Source: Escherichia phage dune
Strand: one strand, 5' to 3'
Length of the DNA stretch: 64,000 nt
Sequence record: MN850636.1
A program made the position numbers and the translations under genes. This document shows positions 2,202 to 59,285 of the stretch, piece after piece. Under the pieces are notes generated by a model. It was not told the DNA's origin, searched no databases, and saw nothing but the letters and a program-made list of their open reading frames with translations. The first letter of the stretch is position 1; each line of letters starts with the position of its first letter.

Positions 2202-4407
2202 CTTGCAGTGCAGATTTACCTACACCAATGCGACTGTTAAGGTAGTACATGGTTTTCATACCTACTGAGTTGGCATAAATCATGTACTTCAAAGCTTGAG
2301 CCAATGATACCTTCTTAGACTTTGCATAGTCAACATAGAAATCTGAAGAGATAGCTTGACCAGTGAACTTTTGAACAATTGCATAACAATCAATCAGGTC
2401 AAAGGTGTCAATATCCCAAGCAATTTCATAGACATACTTCAACTCTTCGTAATCTGGAACAATAAACAGTACGTTACCAGTTGCAGACTTTTTAGTTAAA
2501 ATAAAGTCACGAATTGGATACAAGCCGTTTGTCGTATTAGTTGCCAGTGAAGAACTCTCATTAGGCATGTAAGCTTCTAATACAGAGTTACGGATTCCAC
2601 CATTTTCTTTAATACGTTGTGCTAAGTCATCCCAATCATAACGAAGTTTTGCATCATGCTTCTCATCAATCTTCCTGTTAGCTGTCTTTGGAGGAACCCA
2701 ACCTTCAGGATATTTAGTGAACTGCATATACTCAGGCACACCACGTTCTTTAGCAAGTCTTAAAGAAGCTTCGTGTAAGTAGTAAGAGTGCATTTCAGCA
2801 AGCTCATGAAGCTTCGTCTTACCTGCTCTTGAAGAGTAGTTCACGTAGTTTTTCGCAAGGTAATGAGCCACATTTGTAAGGCCAATCCCAACAGAACGAC
2901 GCTTCTGAACATGGTTACGCATCGACGGATACGGATAATCCATAAGGTCAATAACGGAGTCAACCATTGCAAGAGCATAATAAGCAACGTCAGCGTATTC
3001 ATCTTCTGAAATTCTCCCTGCAACCAAACTAGCTAGGAAGCAAAGAGCTACCTCACCATCCTCTTTCACAGCGTCATCTCTGTAAAGGTCTGTCTCTTTC
3101 TCAAAGCCATACACTGGCAACACAATTTCCATACAAAGATTTGACATCTTCAAAGGTTCTTTAAATGGTGTATGTGTGTTTGCATTATTTGTGAAGAATG
3201 GATACACACGGCCTGTTGCATAACGCTGCTGGATAAACAGTTTAGCAATTTCACGAGCCTTCACACGTCTGTGCTTGACACCTGAATGCACTGCATGACC
3301 AACTGCCATAGCAAACTCATCAGCAGATGCTGTGTAGAACATGTCATAGAGTTTTGGTGCATCTTTGTAAGAGAATAACAACCAATCTGTATCATACTGA
3401 ACACACTGCCAGAAATAATCGTTTGTGCCGAATGAGTAGTCCATCTCGTTAATACGTTTAGAAGGAACCGTTGTAGGGTGCTTCAAACGCAGTAAATCTT
3501 CAATCTGCGGGTCTAGAGCAGTGTAGAAGTTATTAGCTGAACCACCACGACTCTTCTGTTTGTTTGCCTCTACAGATGAACGTACAAGCTTGTAATAAGG
3601 TAGCTTACCCATGTGCTCAATAGTATTTTGACGGATACCATCACCAATAGTGCGAGTCTCCATCAGCATACCAATACCAGCTTGCTTTGTGGTCATATCA
3701 TAAGCAACCTTTGCAGCAATACCGAGAGACTCAGCAGTATCATTTGCCTTAATCAAACAGCATGACGCATAACCTGATTTAGTTGCTCTTAAACCATTTA
3801 AATAAGGCGTAGGAGCGTTAATCTTCAGGTCGGATAGGTAAGTGTACAGTTTGATAACATCTTGCAGTCTACGGTGCTTTGGTTGCTTCTCAAAGGCTTT
3901 CATAGCCATACCCATAAACATAAATTGTGGTGACTCAAACAGTCTTCCCGTTTTAATATCACGGATGCCGTACTTGTCTCTGAACTGTTTCAAGACTGCA
4001 TAACCGTAAGAGATATCTTTTGAGTGCACGATGTAACCTTGCAGGTATTCAAGCTCTTCCTGTGAATAATCCATCTTCTCCCAAAGTCCTGCTCTCTCCA
4101 TATTTTTAACGAAGGTAATCAGCGTAGGAACCTTAGTAAAGCCTCCAAAGGCTTCTTTGTAGATAATCCCTAGAAGTAGCCGTCCAGCCATATCTGAGTA
4201 CTCTTGAGTTTGTTTATCAACACAAACATCAATCATGGCTTGGTGCATCTCTTTTGTGGTGCATCCTTCATAAACACGTTTCATAGCTTCCATAGTGACT
4301 TCTGACCAGATAATTCCACGTTTATCTGCCCATGATGCCCACTTATTCAGTCTTTCTGGGTCAAAGCTTACTACTGTACCATTTGATTTTTTAATTGTCT
4401 TAATCAT
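2173..4407 (-). CDS. nrdA: Ribonucleotide reductase class I large (alpha) subunit
   Basis: 744 aa; N-terminal ATP-cone (TVVSFDPERLNKW), active-site NxCxE motif (SNLCMEIVLP), C-terminal Cys pair (CEGCGV). Confidence 0.92.
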   Translation of the reverse strand: MIKTIKKSNGTVVSFDPERLNKWASWADKRGIIWSEVTMEAMKRVYEGCTTKEMHQAMIDVCVDKQTQEYSDMAGRLLLGIIYKEAFGGFTKVPTLITFVKNMERAGLWEKMDYSQEELEYLQGYIVHSKDISYGYAVLKQFRDKYGIRDIKTGRLFESPQFMFMGMAMKAFEKQPKHRRLQDVIKLYTYLSDLKINAPTPYLNGLRATKSGYASCCLIKANDTAESLGIAAKVAYDMTTKQAGIGMLMETRTIGDGIRQNTIEHMGKLPYYKLVRSSVEANKQKSRGGSANNFYTALDPQIEDLLRLKHPTTVPSKRINEMDYSFGTNDYFWQCVQYDTDWLLFSYKDAPKLYDMFYTASADEFAMAVGHAVHSGVKHRRVKAREIAKLFIQQRYATGRVYPFFTNNANTHTPFKEPLKMSNLCMEIVLPVYGFEKETDLYRDDAVKEDGEVALCFLASLVAGRISEDEYADVAYYALAMVDSVIDLMDYPYPSMRNHVQKRRSVGIGLTNVAHYLAKNYVNYSSRAGKTKLHELAEMHSYYLHEASLRLAKERGVPEYMQFTKYPEGWVPPKTANRKIDEKHDAKLRYDWDDLAQRIKENGGIRNSVLEAYMPNESSSLATNTTNGLYPIRDFILTKKSATGNVLFIVPDYEELKYVYEIAWDIDTFDLIDCYAIVQKFTGQAISSDFYVDYAKSKKVSLAQALKYMIYANSVGMKTMYYLNSRIGVGKSALQDAYCEGCGV

Positions 4408-41906: not shown

Positions 41907-43013
41907 TTATTCGCCTTTAGCGTCAGCGCGAACATCTACCAGCAACTGAGGACGAGTACAGTATGGCAGCATGTAAGAGTGAGCTTCGAAGTCAATACCT
42001 TCGTCACGGTCTTTTTCGTATTCGAATACGTACAGTTCCTGACCAAGTGTATTTGCGTAACCCATCTTAGGACATGGACCATATGCAACTTCGAAGATGT
42101 TGTTAGCTTCACCAAGCATAGATACGTTAGGGAAAGCATGACCCACACCAACAGTGTCTGCTACGCTGTCAATGCTCACCAGAGTGTGAACCTTACCACG
42201 CTTGTCTTTGAACTTACCGTTGTACTGGACAAACTTAACACCACCGTAGTAGAAAGTGTTCATATGAGCCTGAACGCCGTCAGCACCACCAGTTCTCAGA
42301 GAACCAGTAATCTGTTGCCAAGCCAGTGGAGTCTGCTGTGCAAGATAAGCGTCACGAATCTTAGGATGCTTAACCAGTTTGCTGAAGAATACACGGTCAA
42401 CAACTACGTGAATTTCTTCACCGTTGATTACAGTGCCAGTCTTAGCTTCGTCTTCCATGTGCATACGCAGTTCTTCAATAGAAGCGTCGATGTCAGCATT
42501 AGGATTGTCAAGGTCGAAGTGAATAGTCTTCTTCTCAACGTCGAACTGCTTGTACAGGTCAGCATACAGAGTACCACGAGCATCGACAACTTTACCCTTC
42601 AGAGCTTGCATAAACAGGAACTCACGAGTAATATCGAACTTGGTACGAATCTTCATCAGCTTCTTAGCACGTACTACAGCTTCAGTAGTCAGTTCGTTTG
42701 CAGTGCCTGGCTGACGTACACCCTGAATCTCATCAGGAGTAATGCTTTCAACTTCTTTGAAGTACATCATTGGGAAGCTGATTTGACGAACACGCTCAGG
42801 TGCGCTAGTCTCTGCTTTACGGCTATCACGGTCTACCGCATCAAGCAAGCTAACATCCCAATCAGTCAAGTCCATAAGGAAAGTAGTTTGGGTGATTGGT
42901 GCTGAACGGAACAGACCTAAGTTGGAAATATACCCATAAGTATTTGGGATAGACTGGACTTCACCAGTCAGGTCAGCAAGGAAAAATCTGCTTTTTTCAG
43001 AATTAGTCAACAT
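41907..43013 (-). CDS. Major capsid protein (lambda gpE-like family)
   Basis: 368 aa; C-terminal region resembles Phage_cap_E family; order decoration-capsid after protease/scaffold. Confidence 0.7.
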   Translation of the reverse strand: MLTNSEKSRFFLADLTGEVQSIPNTYGYISNLGLFRSAPITQTTFLMDLTDWDVSLLDAVDRDSRKAETSAPERVRQISFPMMYFKEVESITPDEIQGVRQPGTANELTTEAVVRAKKLMKIRTKFDITREFLFMQALKGKVVDARGTLYADLYKQFDVEKKTIHFDLDNPNADIDASIEELRMHMEDEAKTGTVINGEEIHVVVDRVFFSKLVKHPKIRDAYLAQQTPLAWQQITGSLRTGGADGVQAHMNTFYYGGVKFVQYNGKFKDKRGKVHTLVSIDSVADTVGVGHAFPNVSMLGEANNIFEVAYGPCPKMGYANTLGQELYVFEYEKDRDEGIDFEAHSYMLPYCTRPQLLVDVRADAKGE

Positions 43014-43046: not shown

Positions 43047-43424
43047 TTACAGGCCAGTTGGTACGAAATCAATACCTTTAGCAGCCAGAGCTGCCTTAAC
43101 ACTATCAGCATTAACACTTGCTTCAAGAGTAAGCATGTCTTTCAGTTCTGCATCGCGGTAGATACCTACCACTTTCAACTGACCATGATAAGACAGTTGT
43201 GAGTCTGCGTAGAAGTTAACGATACATACAGAGTCAGCCTGAGCTTCTTCCCCTGCTGCAACTTTAGTACCGTCTGCTTTCAGAACTTCACCTACACGGT
43301 ATTCTGTTGAAGCAACTGGAGTGTACTCTTTACGAGAGTGACCTGTTGGGGTAATCTGTTCCCAAAGAATGATATCATTCAGAGGTTCTCTTTTACCTAA
43401 CTTAGTAAAACCTTGATATGCCAT
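43047..43424 (-). CDS. Putative head decoration protein
   Basis: 125 aa immediately upstream of capsid gene (lambda D-E arrangement). Confidence 0.45.
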   Translation of the reverse strand: MAYQGFTKLGKREPLNDIILWEQITPTGHSRKEYTPVASTEYRVGEVLKADGTKVAAGEEAQADSVCIVNFYADSQLSYHGQLKVVGIYRDAELKDMLTLEASVNADSVKAALAAKGIDFVPTGL

Positions 43425-54142: not shown

Positions 54143-55558
54143 TTACCAGATGTAACGGTCAATCATTACTGCTTTGAGCATTACACTGATTGGGTCAAAC
54201 TTCTCACCACCAAGCAGAGCTTTTAAAGTAGCTGGAGAGAAACCTGATACCATTGCTACACCGTTATCCTTAACAGATACTTCGCAAGTACCATTACGGT
54301 TTGCTAAGTACCAGAATACCAGTTGTGGCATCTTATATCCAGCTTTTTTGTACTTACTACGAATTTCTTCAAAGTTTGTACGACCGTTAGCTCCATCAAC
54401 CTGATTGAACTCCATATCGGAGAAGATGATAAGCTTACTTGGCATATCTTTCTGAGTCAAGTTGTTTCTTTTACCTGTTTCAAGAATGCGGTCAAAAGCT
54501 GCTTGTAAGTTAGTTGAGCCATATTCAACGTGTCGCATCACCTGACGATGACGGTTTCGTAAATCACCGCTCAGTTCGATGAAGTGAGGGTTTGTTGAAT
54601 AAACCATTAACTCATTCTTAAAGCAACCTGTATTGCGTTCTGCTACATACAAGGCAAGTGATACACCAATATCCAGAGCAGTAATGGAGCCAAAATTCAC
54701 CCAAGACATTGAACTTGATACATCAGACATACACAAGATGTTTTCACCTTCTGCCATCCAGTTTGGTAGTGCTTTCCACTGCTCATTAGCAACATCTGCA
54801 TTACCATACTTGACAGATTTAATCACATCGTATGGGTAAACAGCACCAGCGTTAATCTTAGTCTCACCTTTTGATAAGGACTCGATGTAAGCTTTGTAAC
54901 GCTCTCCATCTTTACGGTTAAACAGTTTTTGGTAACGTGCAGCAGCAAGTGAAGGAATCTTACTGTAGTCAATCTTACCAAACTCATTAGCAGAGATTTT
55001 TTGCTCAACTGTATCAGATAGTGCAGACAACAGTGTGCGGTACTCTTTCTCACTCAAGTTGGCAAACTTGCAGAAACGTTTTACAAACTGCTTATGACGT
55101 GGTTTGACTCGTGGTAACCACTTAGCCGCCAAACCTGCTGTTGCAGGGTCTAGTAATGCTGCTTCTAAATGTTTGAAGGCATCTGTCTCGAAACGAGTAC
55201 CTACGAAGATTTTGAAGTCATCAAAACGACCAAGTTCTGCAATCTTATCCATAATGCGAAGAACCTGCATAGACTCTAAAACTTTGTCTTCAATCGCTTG
55301 AAGCAAAACAGTTCTGAAGGCTTTACGCTCACCCATACCTTCTCGTACATCTCGCATATGCAGTAAAATACGAACTGCAACATCAACATCCTCACGCAAA
55401 GCTTTGTAGAACAGGTCTGGTAAGATTTCTACATTGCTACGGCTTGAACCAGCAGCTTTGTAAAAGTCCACAAGAGCAGACATTGATGAAGTATGGTTTA
55501 CAGCACCATTTTCAGTTCGACCTGCATGAAGGTGCGCATGTTTAAATAATTCGCTCAT
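54143..55558 (-). CDS. vWA-domain protein with MIDAS motif (alpha-helical N-domain + C-terminal vWA); TROVE/Ro60-like architecture possible
   Basis: 471 aa; DxSxS MIDAS in CMSDVSSSMSW, downstream LIIFSDMEF beta-strand/Asp; heads the tRNA operon on the same strand. Confidence 0.65.
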   Translation of the reverse strand: MSELFKHAHLHAGRTENGAVNHTSSMSALVDFYKAAGSSRSNVEILPDLFYKALREDVDVAVRILLHMRDVREGMGERKAFRTVLLQAIEDKVLESMQVLRIMDKIAELGRFDDFKIFVGTRFETDAFKHLEAALLDPATAGLAAKWLPRVKPRHKQFVKRFCKFANLSEKEYRTLLSALSDTVEQKISANEFGKIDYSKIPSLAAARYQKLFNRKDGERYKAYIESLSKGETKINAGAVYPYDVIKSVKYGNADVANEQWKALPNWMAEGENILCMSDVSSSMSWVNFGSITALDIGVSLALYVAERNTGCFKNELMVYSTNPHFIELSGDLRNRHRQVMRHVEYGSTNLQAAFDRILETGKRNNLTQKDMPSKLIIFSDMEFNQVDGANGRTNFEEIRSKYKKAGYKMPQLVFWYLANRNGTCEVSVKDNGVAMVSGFSPATLKALLGGEKFDPISVMLKAVMIDRYIW

Positions 55559-56422: not shown

Positions 56423-56637
56423 AAATCGCAGATATTATAGATTTATATCAAACTGCAAAGAGTCATGGCTATATAACCTCAATTGGAAAGAATAGTCACT
56501 ATGATGCTTTGACTGGAATGTATTTCAGGGCAATGGCTCAATCTAGTGAACAACACTTAATGGTTTCTTCCAGTGAGTTTACTTCGTTTCTCTATTGCAG
56601 CAAAATTATAAATCGCAGGAGAACTGAAAAATGTTAA
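56404..56637 (+). CDS. Hypothetical protein (77 aa)
   Basis: ORF track. Confidence 0.4.
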   Translation: MCSSQLEIADIIDLYQTAKSHGYITSIGKNSHYDALTGMYFRAMAQSSEQHLMVSSSEFTSFLYCSKIINRRRTEKC

Positions 56638-57221
56638 CAGTAAGTTTTAATTACAATAGTGATGGCTCTGTATCAATTAATTCGCCATATGCAAATGACC
56701 TACTTAAAGAGCTAGTCAATCAGTGTGATAGAGGTCTTCACTATGTTCAAAATTCTTTTAAACAGAAAACTATTGCTAATAACTTGATGCGTGTAACAGT
56801 GACGGCATCGAATCCAAATTATGACTTTGATAGTGAAAGTCCGTACTCATTAGTTGCGCTTGGAGAGAGCAGCCAATTCAAACTTGTTTGCCACGACTCA
56901 GAAACATTCCTTAAGGTATTTTCAAACCTTATCCATAATAATAAGTACAGCTACGTTGATGGTAGTGTAAACTTCTATCCAGCAAATTATACATGTTTGT
57001 TGGTTGATAATATGAGAAAAAGTAAGCAAGAGCCTACGGAAATTTCATTTGATGTGAACTCTAGTCCAGACGCAGAAACAAGTAAGAACTTTGATATGAG
57101 TTACGCATTGTCACTTAGTAAGAAATCCGAGTTCATTGATTATGTCAATGGATTTGGTTTTAAGTTTGATGAGAGTATGAATCTTAAAAAACTTAAGAAC
57201 CTACTTAAGACCAAAGCTTAA
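56631..57221 (+). CDS. Hypothetical protein (196 aa)
   Basis: ORF track. Confidence 0.5.
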   Translation: MLTVSFNYNSDGSVSINSPYANDLLKELVNQCDRGLHYVQNSFKQKTIANNLMRVTVTASNPNYDFDSESPYSLVALGESSQFKLVCHDSETFLKVFSNLIHNNKYSYVDGSVNFYPANYTCLLVDNMRKSKQEPTEISFDVNSSPDAETSKNFDMSYALSLSKKSEFIDYVNGFGFKFDESMNLKKLKNLLKTKA

Positions 57222-57231
57222 GTGTGAATAG

Positions 57232-57250
57232 GGGCTGATGCCCCTTTAAC
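57232..57250 (+). terminator. Putative rho-independent terminator (GGGGC-TGAT-GCCCC + TTT)
   Basis: GC-rich 5-bp stem; short T-run. Confidence 0.4.
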
Positions 57251-57268
57251 TATTTATAAGGATATTTA

Positions 57269-57640
57269 ATGAAAGCTAAGAGTGCAAAAGACTTTTATTG
57301 CTTCCTACAATCCTATATCAATTCCGTGCAAAATGGTGAAAGGTACAACCTTAATGATGTTATCCCAACACCTTTGACATGGAGACTCAGTAAATGGCCT
57401 GAAGAAGATATTACACCAACAAGCGAACAACGCACCTACAAACCTGAAATCAATATTCCAAACTCTGAGAATCTACTATATCCAATGTTCCATATTGTTG
57501 GTCTTGGAAGATTCCTTATGGATATCCAGTATGTAATTGGTAAAGGTTATAAGGTTAAAGGTATTGTTGTTGGTGATGTATCTCCACACCACAAAGGTTA
57601 TTTTAGACTAAACGCACATTTAGAGGCTAAAAAGAAATGA
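57269..57640 (+). CDS. Hypothetical protein (123 aa), paralog of N-terminal domain of downstream Ig-like protein
   Basis: Alignable by eye with residues 1-125 of 57637-58770 product (KxKxxxDFxxFxxxxIxxVxxGxRY... MDxQYxI). Confidence 0.5.
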   Translation: MKAKSAKDFYCFLQSYINSVQNGERYNLNDVIPTPLTWRLSKWPEEDITPTSEQRTYKPEINIPNSENLLYPMFHIVGLGRFLMDIQYVIGKGYKVKGIVVGDVSPHHKGYFRLNAHLEAKKK

Positions 57641-58770
57641 TTAAAGCAAAGACTTACCCAGACTTCAAAGAGTTTGTGAAGGGCTTCATTGCAAACGTAA
57701 AGGCTGGTAAGAGATATGATTTTAGAACATATCAAGAGGCTATTTTACCGCTTACCTACAGTTCGTATTGGCCTGAAGCTGATATTGCAGAAGTCGATGA
57801 GTTTGACTACAAACCAGACTACAAAGTTCCATTTAGTGATGAGTTGCTTTACAGCATTGGTGCTCAAATGAGAACTTCTGACTTCTTCATGGACTTACAA
57901 TATGCAATTATCAATGGTAAAGACGTTGACACAATTTATTGTGAATGGCTGGCAAGAGTTAAACCATTCTCAATGTTGAATGCTAAGTTGAAGGATGCTA
58001 TCAAGCCACCAGCAATCACTCAGCAACCAACCAATCAAACAGTAAATGAAGGTGGTACGCTTACCCTAAGTGTTATTGCAACGAATGCCACTGGATATCA
58101 ATGGAAAAAGGATGGAGAGGATATTCCTAGTGCCACCTCTGCAACTTATACAAAACAGTCCGTAGTACCTTCTGATGCTGGCTCATACACTTGTGTTGTA
58201 TCTGGAGAGGCTGGAACAAGTGTTACCTCAGATGCGGCAACAGTTGCTGTTAATGCACTGCCTGTGATTACACAGCAGCCTTCTGGTCAGACTGTCAATG
58301 AGGGTGGAAGCATTAACTTGGAAGTGACTGCAACAGGTGCGACAGGTTACCAGTGGAAGAAAGATGGCTCTGACATTCCTTCAGCTACAAATGCTACCTA
58401 TAGCAAGTCTGGTGCTCTGCCAGCAGATGCAGGCTCATATACTTGCGTTGTAACAGGTGCGGGTGGTGCAGTGACATCTAATGCTGCTGTAGTAACTGTG
58501 AACGCACTTCCAGTAATTACTCAACAGCCAACCAATCAAGAAATCAATGAAGGTGAGACCTTAACGCTGAATGTTGTGGCAACAGGTGCGACAGGTTACC
58601 AGTGGAAGAAAGGTGAGGAAGACATCCTCGATGCAACTACTGCAACTTACACCAAAGAAGGTGCGACCGCTGCTGATGCAGGAAGCTACACCTGTGTAGT
58701 TACTGGTGCAGGTGGCTCTGTAACATCTAATGCAGCAACAGTTACAGTTAACCCAGCAGGGGAGGCGTAA
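57637..58770 (+). CDS. Protein with three tandem immunoglobulin-like domains
   Basis: Three ~82-aa repeats ITQQPxNQxVNEGxxLxLxVxATGATGYQWKKDGxDIPxATxATYxKxxxxxADAGSYTCVVTGAGGxVTSNAAxVTVN. Confidence 0.7.
   Translation: MIKAKTYPDFKEFVKGFIANVKAGKRYDFRTYQEAILPLTYSSYWPEADIAEVDEFDYKPDYKVPFSDELLYSIGAQMRTSDFFMDLQYAIINGKDVDTIYCEWLARVKPFSMLNAKLKDAIKPPAITQQPTNQTVNEGGTLTLSVIATNATGYQWKKDGEDIPSATSATYTKQSVVPSDAGSYTCVVSGEAGTSVTSDAATVAVNALPVITQQPSGQTVNEGGSINLEVTATGATGYQWKKDGSDIPSATNATYSKSGALPADAGSYTCVVTGAGGAVTSNAAVVTVNALPVITQQPTNQEINEGETLTLNVVATGATGYQWKKGEEDILDATTATYTKEGATAADAGSYTCVVTGAGGSVTSNAATVTVNPAGEA
58003..58745 (+). repeat. Three tandem ~246-bp repeats encoding Ig-like domains
   Basis: Direct DNA repeats beginning cagca(a/g)cc...gtcaatga(a/g)ggtg. 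Confidence 0.7.
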
Positions 58771-59234
58771 TGCAACTCTCAAGAAAAGGTTTAGATGCTA
58801 TTAAGTTCTTCGAAGGTCTGGAGTTAGAGGCTTACGAAGATTCTGCCGGAATCCCAACAATCGGGTATGGGACAATCCGTATTGACGGAAAACCTGTTAA
58901 GATGGGTATGAAGATTACCGCTGAACAAGCTGAACAGTATCTTCTCGCAGATGTTGAAAAGTTTGTTGCAGCAGTGAACAAAGCCGTCAATGTTCCAACT
59001 TCTCAGAATGAGTTTGACGCACTTGTAAGTGAAACATACAACATTGGTATCACAGCTATGCAGGATTCCACATTTATCAAGCGCCACAATGCTGGTAATA
59101 AGGTGGGTTGTGCAGAAGCTATGCAGTGGTGGAACAAGGTTACAGTCAAAGGTAAGAAGGTCACTTCAAACGGACTGAAAAACAGACGTAGAATGGAAGC
59201 TGACATTTATCTTGACAGTGTATACCCAAAGTAA
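58770..59234 (+). CDS. Endolysin, T4-lysozyme-like (GH24) muramidase
   Basis: Catalytic-region motif FEGLELEAYEDSAGIPTIGYG; 154 aa. Confidence 0.85.
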   Translation: MQLSRKGLDAIKFFEGLELEAYEDSAGIPTIGYGTIRIDGKPVKMGMKITAEQAEQYLLADVEKFVAAVNKAVNVPTSQNEFDALVSETYNIGITAMQDSTFIKRHNAGNKVGCAEAMQWWNKVTVKGKKVTSNGLKNRRRMEADIYLDSVYPK

Positions 59235-59245
59235 TATCTTCATAG

Positions 59246-59268
59246 GCTCCTTCGGGAGCCTTTTTTAT
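59246..59268 (+). terminator. Rho-independent terminator (GGCTCC-TTCG-GGAGCC + T6)
   Basis: Perfect stem, tetraloop, T-run directly after endolysin stop. Confidence 0.6.
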
Positions 59269-59285
59269 TTTCTAAGGAGAAAACT

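Follow-up and report, generated by a model that had tools for sequence, protein, structure and literature searches.

Organization of the locus

The window analyzed here is the whole 64,000-nucleotide stretch of DNA from Escherichia phage dune (record MN850636.1). In the region studied, it is 99.2–99.4% identical to Escherichia phages fjerdesal, Tribble, and wV8, and the region matches 239 phage records, nearly all of them from Felixounavirus and its relatives; the phage of the window is a Felixounavirus.

Two ORFs were found exactly as given in a preliminary description of this DNA, which was made from the sequence alone: 57269–57640 (+, 123 aa) and 57637–58770 (+, 377 aa). Their junction is ATGA, with overlapping stop and start codons, and the stop codon of the longer ORF in turn overlaps the start codon of the third gene of the unit (TAATG), which lies directly 3′ of it and encodes a 154-aa endolysin (Pfam Phage_lysozyme, 9e-41). 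The unit is bounded by two hairpins (Table 1). The upstream one coincides in position with a rho-independent terminator annotated in the RefSeq record of wV8; it was not called by the consensus terminator scan and hence is considered weak. The downstream one is also annotated in wV8. The sigma-70 promoter scan gave no candidate in the interval from the upstream hairpin to the 123-aa gene, and overall it found fewer sites than in shuffled sequence (4 vs 8.8). The gene of the major capsid protein lies on the opposite strand at a distance of ~14.6 kb. Thus, both the proximity to the endolysin gene and the position outside the structural module, as initially described, are confirmed, the latter point having also been made for a close relative (PMC12609058).

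Table 1. Features of the locus, the capsid protein gene, and the decayed copies of the short gene. Coordinates are those of the window unless another locus is named.
Feature	Coordinates	Strand	Description or basis
Terminator hairpin	57231..57246	+	Short G+C hairpin aggggctgatgcccct, then weak T-tract; upstream edge of the unit
Ig-less CapBD paralog (predicted)	57269..57640	+	Homology, predicted fold, dN/dS
CapBD of Hex-Dec (aa 1–121)	57637..57999	+	Residue-for-residue alignment with 9ncf_S and 9c2d_S
Ig-like domain 1 (aa 125–208)	58009..58260	+	Pfam Ig_3, best stretch 124–189
Ig-like domain 2 (aa 209–291)	58261..58509	+	Pfam I-set, best stretch 209–285
Ig-like domain 3 (aa 292–377) and stop codon	58510..58770	+	Pfam Ig_2, best stretch 292–371
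Endolysin	58770..59234	+	Pfam Phage_lysozyme
Strong intrinsic terminator	59244..59271	+	7-bp stem with 5 G-C pairs, then T-run; end of the unit
Major capsid protein (368 aa)	41907..43013	-	99% identity to the capsid protein of Felix O1 (tblastn)
Decayed paralog remnant	L003 (REP7) 2308–2501; L023 (SP116) 2308–2501		

On the other side of the upstream hairpin, a 196-aa protein is encoded (56631–57221, +; wV8 gp43, phrog_4034), annotated without a function. A gp43-like gene lies immediately upstream of the Hex-Dec locus, that is, the locus of the 377-aa protein, in every Ounavirinae genome examined, its counterpart in Erwinia phage phiEa21-4 being gp39 (28% identity). The gene of a 471-aa protein with Pfam domains DUF7788 (1e-42) and DUF2828 (4e-29), called “RNA-binding protein” in the RefSeq record of wV8 (54143–55558, -), directly adjoins the large tRNA cluster of the phage. 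Directly upstream of the capsid protein gene, an intact 125-aa ORF (43047–43424, -) occupies the place where Bas63 encodes its beta-tulip “Dec” trimer; in the RefSeq record of wV8, its counterpart is split into two CDS under the label “tail protease,” probably due to a frameshift or an annotation error.

The 377-aa protein and its capsid-bound homologs

Three Pfam families match the 377-aa protein, each in three stretches, namely, Ig_3 (1.7e-33), I-set (2.5e-26), and Ig_2 (1.5e-25), and no Pfam match was obtained for its first ~120 residues or for the 123-aa protein. The three Ig-like domains had been described as near-identical; their number stands, but in pairwise comparisons they are only 71–72% identical in amino acids and 64–67% in nucleotides. 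Due to this divergence, the repeats are not detected by Tandem Repeats Finder at the DNA level, and the domains are old duplicates.

The protein is 100% identical to gp41 of wV8 and matches phrog_3995 (E 2.9e-209). Among PDB sequences, it aligns from residue 1 with chain S of 9ncf (“Immunoglobulin-like domain protein,” 460 aa, E 6.9e-288) and with chain S of 9c2d/9c3a (“Putative tail protein,” 372 aa, E 8e-169). The names in use are Hex-Dec for Bas63, gp20 for Sf14, gp36 for Felix O1, and gp41 for wV8; here we call the protein Hex-Dec.

Its N-terminal anchor, CapBD, has been defined in two structural studies (PMC12609058, PMC11821841). According to the cryo-EM structure of the T=9 capsid of Bas63, Hex-Dec is tightly bound at the centers of the facet-edge hexamers, no density is seen at the other hexamers, the four Ig-like domains are disordered, and the gene is >10 kb outside the structural module (PMC12609058). 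Similarly, gp20 of Sf14, identified by mass spectrometry, binds only the pentamer-proximal hexamers, where Arg79 and Arg107 of its anchor form salt bridges with Asp221 of the capsid protein; the Asp221 residues of the true three-fold hexamers are displaced (PMC11821841). In Felix O1, gene 36 (ORF79, 294 aa, two Ig domains) adjoins the lysin gene 35, and its 31.6-kDa product has been detected in CsCl-purified virions (14 peptides, 44% coverage); transcription of ORFs 36 and 37 peaks at 60 min, and that of the lysin gene at 25 min. A literature search found neither further or earlier mass-spectrometry papers on the Sf14 virion nor later publications on Felixounavirus decoration proteins.

The features characteristic of Hex-Dec are all found in the window: homology to CapBD, Arg79 and Arg107 in the 377-aa protein, Asp221 in the capsid protein (D in the motif KIRDAYL), three Ig domains in a family that has one to four, and a locus adjacent to the endolysin gene. 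Judging by these sequence features, ORF 57637–58770 is the already known hexamer-center capsid decoration protein of Felixounavirus, its location on the capsid being that reported for its homologs, with which it is nearly identical in sequence.

The mechanism has been shown in relatives and is inferred for the phage of the window. The 121-aa CapBD would insert as a monomer at the center of every pentamer-proximal hexamer, of which a T=9 head has 60, and would be held there by the salt bridges between the two arginines and Asp221, and the three acidic I-set Ig domains would reach outward as a flexible fiber. By analogy with Hoc, this fiber most likely provides weak adherence to surfaces or glycans, or modulates aggregation of particles. 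Production of the protein would be late, from the three-gene unit comprising the 123-aa gene, Hex-Dec, and endolysin, set between the two terminator hairpins and outside the structural module.

Two other readings of the 377-aa protein were considered. If the labels in most GenBank records are taken literally, it is a tail protein or the major tail subunit: “tail protein,” “putative tail protein,” and “HK97 major tail subunit” are found in many records, including those of wV8 and Felix O1, and the PHROG major-tail families phrog_158, phrog_853, and phrog_3575 do match it. However, these matches cover only the Ig region (~aa 96–208), with no tail-tube fold; residues 1–121 have no match to a Pfam tail family and correspond to the CapBD of solved structure; the true sheath and tube genes sit in the structural module; and in the cryo-EM structures of two close relatives, the protein is located on the hexamers of the capsid (PMC12609058, PMC11821841). 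Moreover, the label of wV8 gp41 descends from Felix O1 NP_944848, and the authors of the Bas63 study, who observed one to four Ig domains across the genus and the incorrect tail-protein label that most genomes carry, consider it an annotation error (PMC12609058). The tail-protein annotation was therefore rejected on the basis of the capsid location in cryo-EM and the Ig-only PHROG matches, and we see practically no chance of its being correct. The other reading, close to that of the preliminary description, is that of an Ig protein absent from the virion, early or associated with lysis, which binds to the surface of the host and is encoded together with the endolysin. It takes into account the translational coupling of the two genes, the distance from the structural module, and the ability of Ig domains to bind carbohydrates, but is highly improbable in view of the homologs, which are present in purified Felix O1 and Sf14 virions and have been resolved on the capsid, and of the late transcription in Felix O1. 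In phiEa21-4, a terminator separates the Hex-Dec homolog from the endolysin gene, and hence the linkage to endolysin is positional rather than functional.

These data also settle what can be retained from the preliminary description. An Ig-domain protein outside the virion is contradicted by the capsid decorations seen in Bas63 and Sf14 and by the mass-spectrometry detection in Felix O1 and Sf14, and the supposed “early” block by the 60-min peak of Felix O1 genes 36 and 37. The suggested surface-binding role fares better, as it would coincide with the Hoc-like function proposed in both structural papers (PMC12609058, PMC11821841). As for the observation named there as decisive against the hypothesis, a standard capsid decoration with a homolog in the structural module of relatives, its first half is what was found, whereas the second is not, since the relatives have the gene at the same endolysin-adjacent locus. 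The practical outcome of identifying Hex-Dec here is a corrected annotation, as most database records call this structurally solved capsid decoration a “tail protein.”

The Ig-less paralog

The main feature of the locus is thus already explained in the literature, and the residual novelty lies in the 123-aa product of ORF 57269–57640, whose equivalents are wV8 gp42, Felix O1 gp37 (ORF81, 97.6% identical), VpaE1 gp40, bas63_0125, and phrog_4463 (E 1.2e-79). Its earlier description as a duplicate of the N-terminal domain of the larger protein is borne out by BLASTP: it is 38% identical to residues 2–100 of Hex-Dec over 101 aa (E 4e-17). The two PHROG families cross-match over ~119 residues (E 1e-16 and 3e-15), and the paralog also matches the CapBD of 9NCF chain S (residues 2–117, E 1.5e-11). 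The AlphaFold model built from a family-wide alignment (pLDDT 77, pTM 0.77) has only two matches in PDB, 9c2d_S (TM 0.74–0.76) and 9ncf_S (TM 0.71), with no other match at E below 1. The family-wide alignment is essential, as the model based on close orthologs only had pLDDT 52 and was discarded. The paralog is therefore predicted to adopt the anchor fold of CapBD.

The paralog is intact, at 122–124 aa, in ~232 out of 252 matching phage records, which represent Felixounavirus, Mooglevirus, and Suspvirus (70–99% identity). Comparison with ten diverged orthologs gave dN/dS of 0.10–0.19 (about 0.14) at dS up to ~1.6, as expected for a selected protein; for comparison, the values are 0.03–0.06 for CapBD and 0.04–0.11 for endolysin. 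Thus, the paralog is under purifying selection. The alignment has 59 invariant columns, including an 18-residue block, LLYPMFHIVGLGxFLMDI. The gene is decayed in ~19 of the 252 records. REP7 and SP116 share the same remnant, with the start codon lost, ~220 bp deleted internally, and frameshifts, and hence it likely reflects a single loss event inherited by one sublineage and demonstrates that the gene is dispensable. Taken together, the paralog is a functional but dispensable protein.

The capsid-contacting residues are not retained. Both arginines are missing: the position of Arg79 is taken by an invariant Gly, and that of Arg107, by His or Gln; in the basic-x-K-P-[FY] motif, KP[FY] is replaced by [KR]GY. 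An apparent charge inversion (pI 9.3 for the paralog vs 5.0 for CapBD) was dropped from consideration, as pI ranges from 5.1 to 9.3 across orthologs.

Among virion proteins, the paralog does not appear in the Felix O1 list, which retained only proteins with at least 25% coverage, nor, according to the main text of the VpaE1 report, among the three extra VpaE1 virion proteins; small proteins are easily missed in such proteomic data. It is not mentioned in either cryo-EM paper (PMC12609058, PMC11821841), though Bas63 encodes bas63_0125; a binder of low occupancy could be hidden by icosahedral averaging.

Several explanations of the paralog compete. It could be a second, minor capsid decoration occupying sites not used by Hex-Dec, e.g., the 20 true three-fold hexamers, or an Ig-less hexamer cap. 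The complete predicted CapBD fold, purifying selection, and late co-transcription with Hex-Dec in Felix O1 are consistent with this, as are the vacancy of the true three-fold hexamers, left empty by Hex-Dec due to the displaced Asp221 (PMC11821841), and the different set of residues that the paralog has at exactly these contact positions. On the other hand, the remaining hexamers were devoid of density in both cryo-EM studies (PMC12609058, PMC11821841), the proteomes of Felix O1 (at the above coverage threshold) and VpaE1 (in the main text) do not list the protein, and the gene has been lost in the REP7/SP116 lineage, so that we regard a minor decoration as unlikely. We assign a considerably lower probability to a decaying duplicate devoid of function: the pseudogenes of one lineage, the absence of the paralog from Erwinia-type relatives, and evolution about twice as fast as that of CapBD would fit decay, but it is disfavored by the sequence conservation and selection, that is, by the frame kept intact in three genera, the low dN/dS at considerable dS, and the invariant block. 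An unrelated new function is a further rival to a role off the virion. Our best guess, of low confidence and purely inferential, is that the paralog acts off the virion in a role tied to Hex-Dec or capsid assembly.

The paralog is a stand-alone Ig-less copy of CapBD and owes its origin to a tandem duplication that took place in the common ancestor of Felixounavirus, Mooglevirus, and Suspvirus; under the off-virion reading, it would not stably decorate the mature virion but may take part in assembly, either as a partner of Hex-Dec or as its competitor. A more far-reaching possibility, that the paralog is functional as a second ligand, of either the capsid lattice or Hex-Dec itself, e.g., a transient cap or chaperone that steers where and when the decoration binds, is put forward only tentatively, and we would sooner expect it to be wrong than right. 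If true, it would explain why Hex-Dec is present on only 60 out of 80 hexamers and would give a Hoc-like decoration protein a regulatory partner not described before. Modulation of decoration occupancy by the paralog, if confirmed, would add something new, though small, to the biology of capsid assembly, and it could be relevant to the engineering of Felix O1-like heads for phage display. For the account as a whole, comprising the identity of Hex-Dec, its mechanism, the gene unit, and the interpretation of the paralog, our confidence is high.

Comparison with related and analogous decoration proteins

In the 33 loci compared, the order gp43-like gene, paralog, Hex-Dec, endolysin is constant, and Hex-Dec falls into length classes of 210, 294, 377, and 461 aa, corresponding to one to four Ig domains. 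In the two-, three-, and four-domain forms, the last Ig domains are orthologs of each other (95–99% identity), and the single Ig domain of EC6 is an apparent chimera of domains 1 and 3 (81 and 88%, respectively), which fits changes in copy number via recombination between the repeats. Erwinia phage phiEa21-4 has the same gene order and a 204-aa single-Ig homolog (“conserved structural protein”), with no paralog at this locus.

A profile search against 1.84 billion representative proteins yielded only 12 clusters at E ≤ 1e-3, and hence CapBD is a narrow, lineage-specific anchor. Its fusion partners are I-set/Ig_3 domains, Big_2, a Lys/Ser-rich tail, or none. One distant homolog from the profile search (P0060, 153 aa) has no Ig domain and ends in a Lys/Ser/Asp-rich, probably disordered C-terminal tail, which represents another way of using the anchor. 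A tblastn match to CapBD (aa 1–93, 30% identity, E 1e-6) was also found at 42196–42474 of OK283618.1, the 87-kb record of Listeria phage LPML1; it is either a distant relative of CapBD outside enterobacterial Ounavirinae or a sign of a mislabeled record.

The closest known system is Hex-Dec of Bas63 (Escherichia phage JohannRWettstein), a member of the same protein family from a phage of the same genus. The CapBDs are ~97% identical, in both proteins tandem I-set Ig domains come after the N-terminal anchor, and the locus has the same order of paralog, Hex-Dec, and endolysin, whereas the Bas63 protein has four Ig domains (460 aa) compared with three in the window (377 aa), the extra domain being internal. 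Shigella phage Sf14 belongs to another genus, Mooglevirus; its gp20 also has three Ig domains and an N-terminal CapBD, of 118 aa, and the residues Arg79, Arg107, and Asp221 are conserved in the window, but the CapBDs share ~85% identity, with greater divergence of the Ig domains.

More distant similarities concern only the Ig part. The Ig domain of T5 pb10 (PDB 5LXK and 8ZVI) is detectably similar (E 4e-12 and 6e-12), but pb10 has a single such domain, and no similarity of pb10 to CapBD was observed either in sequence or in the fold search with the paralog model. The PHROG families of Hoc-like head decorations (phrog_2973, phrog_4069, phrog_3945) match the Ig region only (aa 121–370).

T4 Hoc itself offers the nearest functional parallel. 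Like Hex-Dec, it is a monomer at hexamer centers with an acidic string of Ig-like domains projecting from the head, is dispensable, and has a proposed role in adhesion or aggregation. The tandem Ig-like domains are seen directly in the sequence of the 377-aa protein, and their display on the capsid surface would be expected from its homologs. Unlike Hex-Dec, with its N-terminal anchor, Hoc is anchored by the C-terminus, so that the domain order is reversed, and its anchor has a topologically distinct fold and no sequence similarity (PMC12609058). Thus, despite the different anchors, the 377-aa protein likely works like Hoc, while its sequence places it outside the Hoc family.
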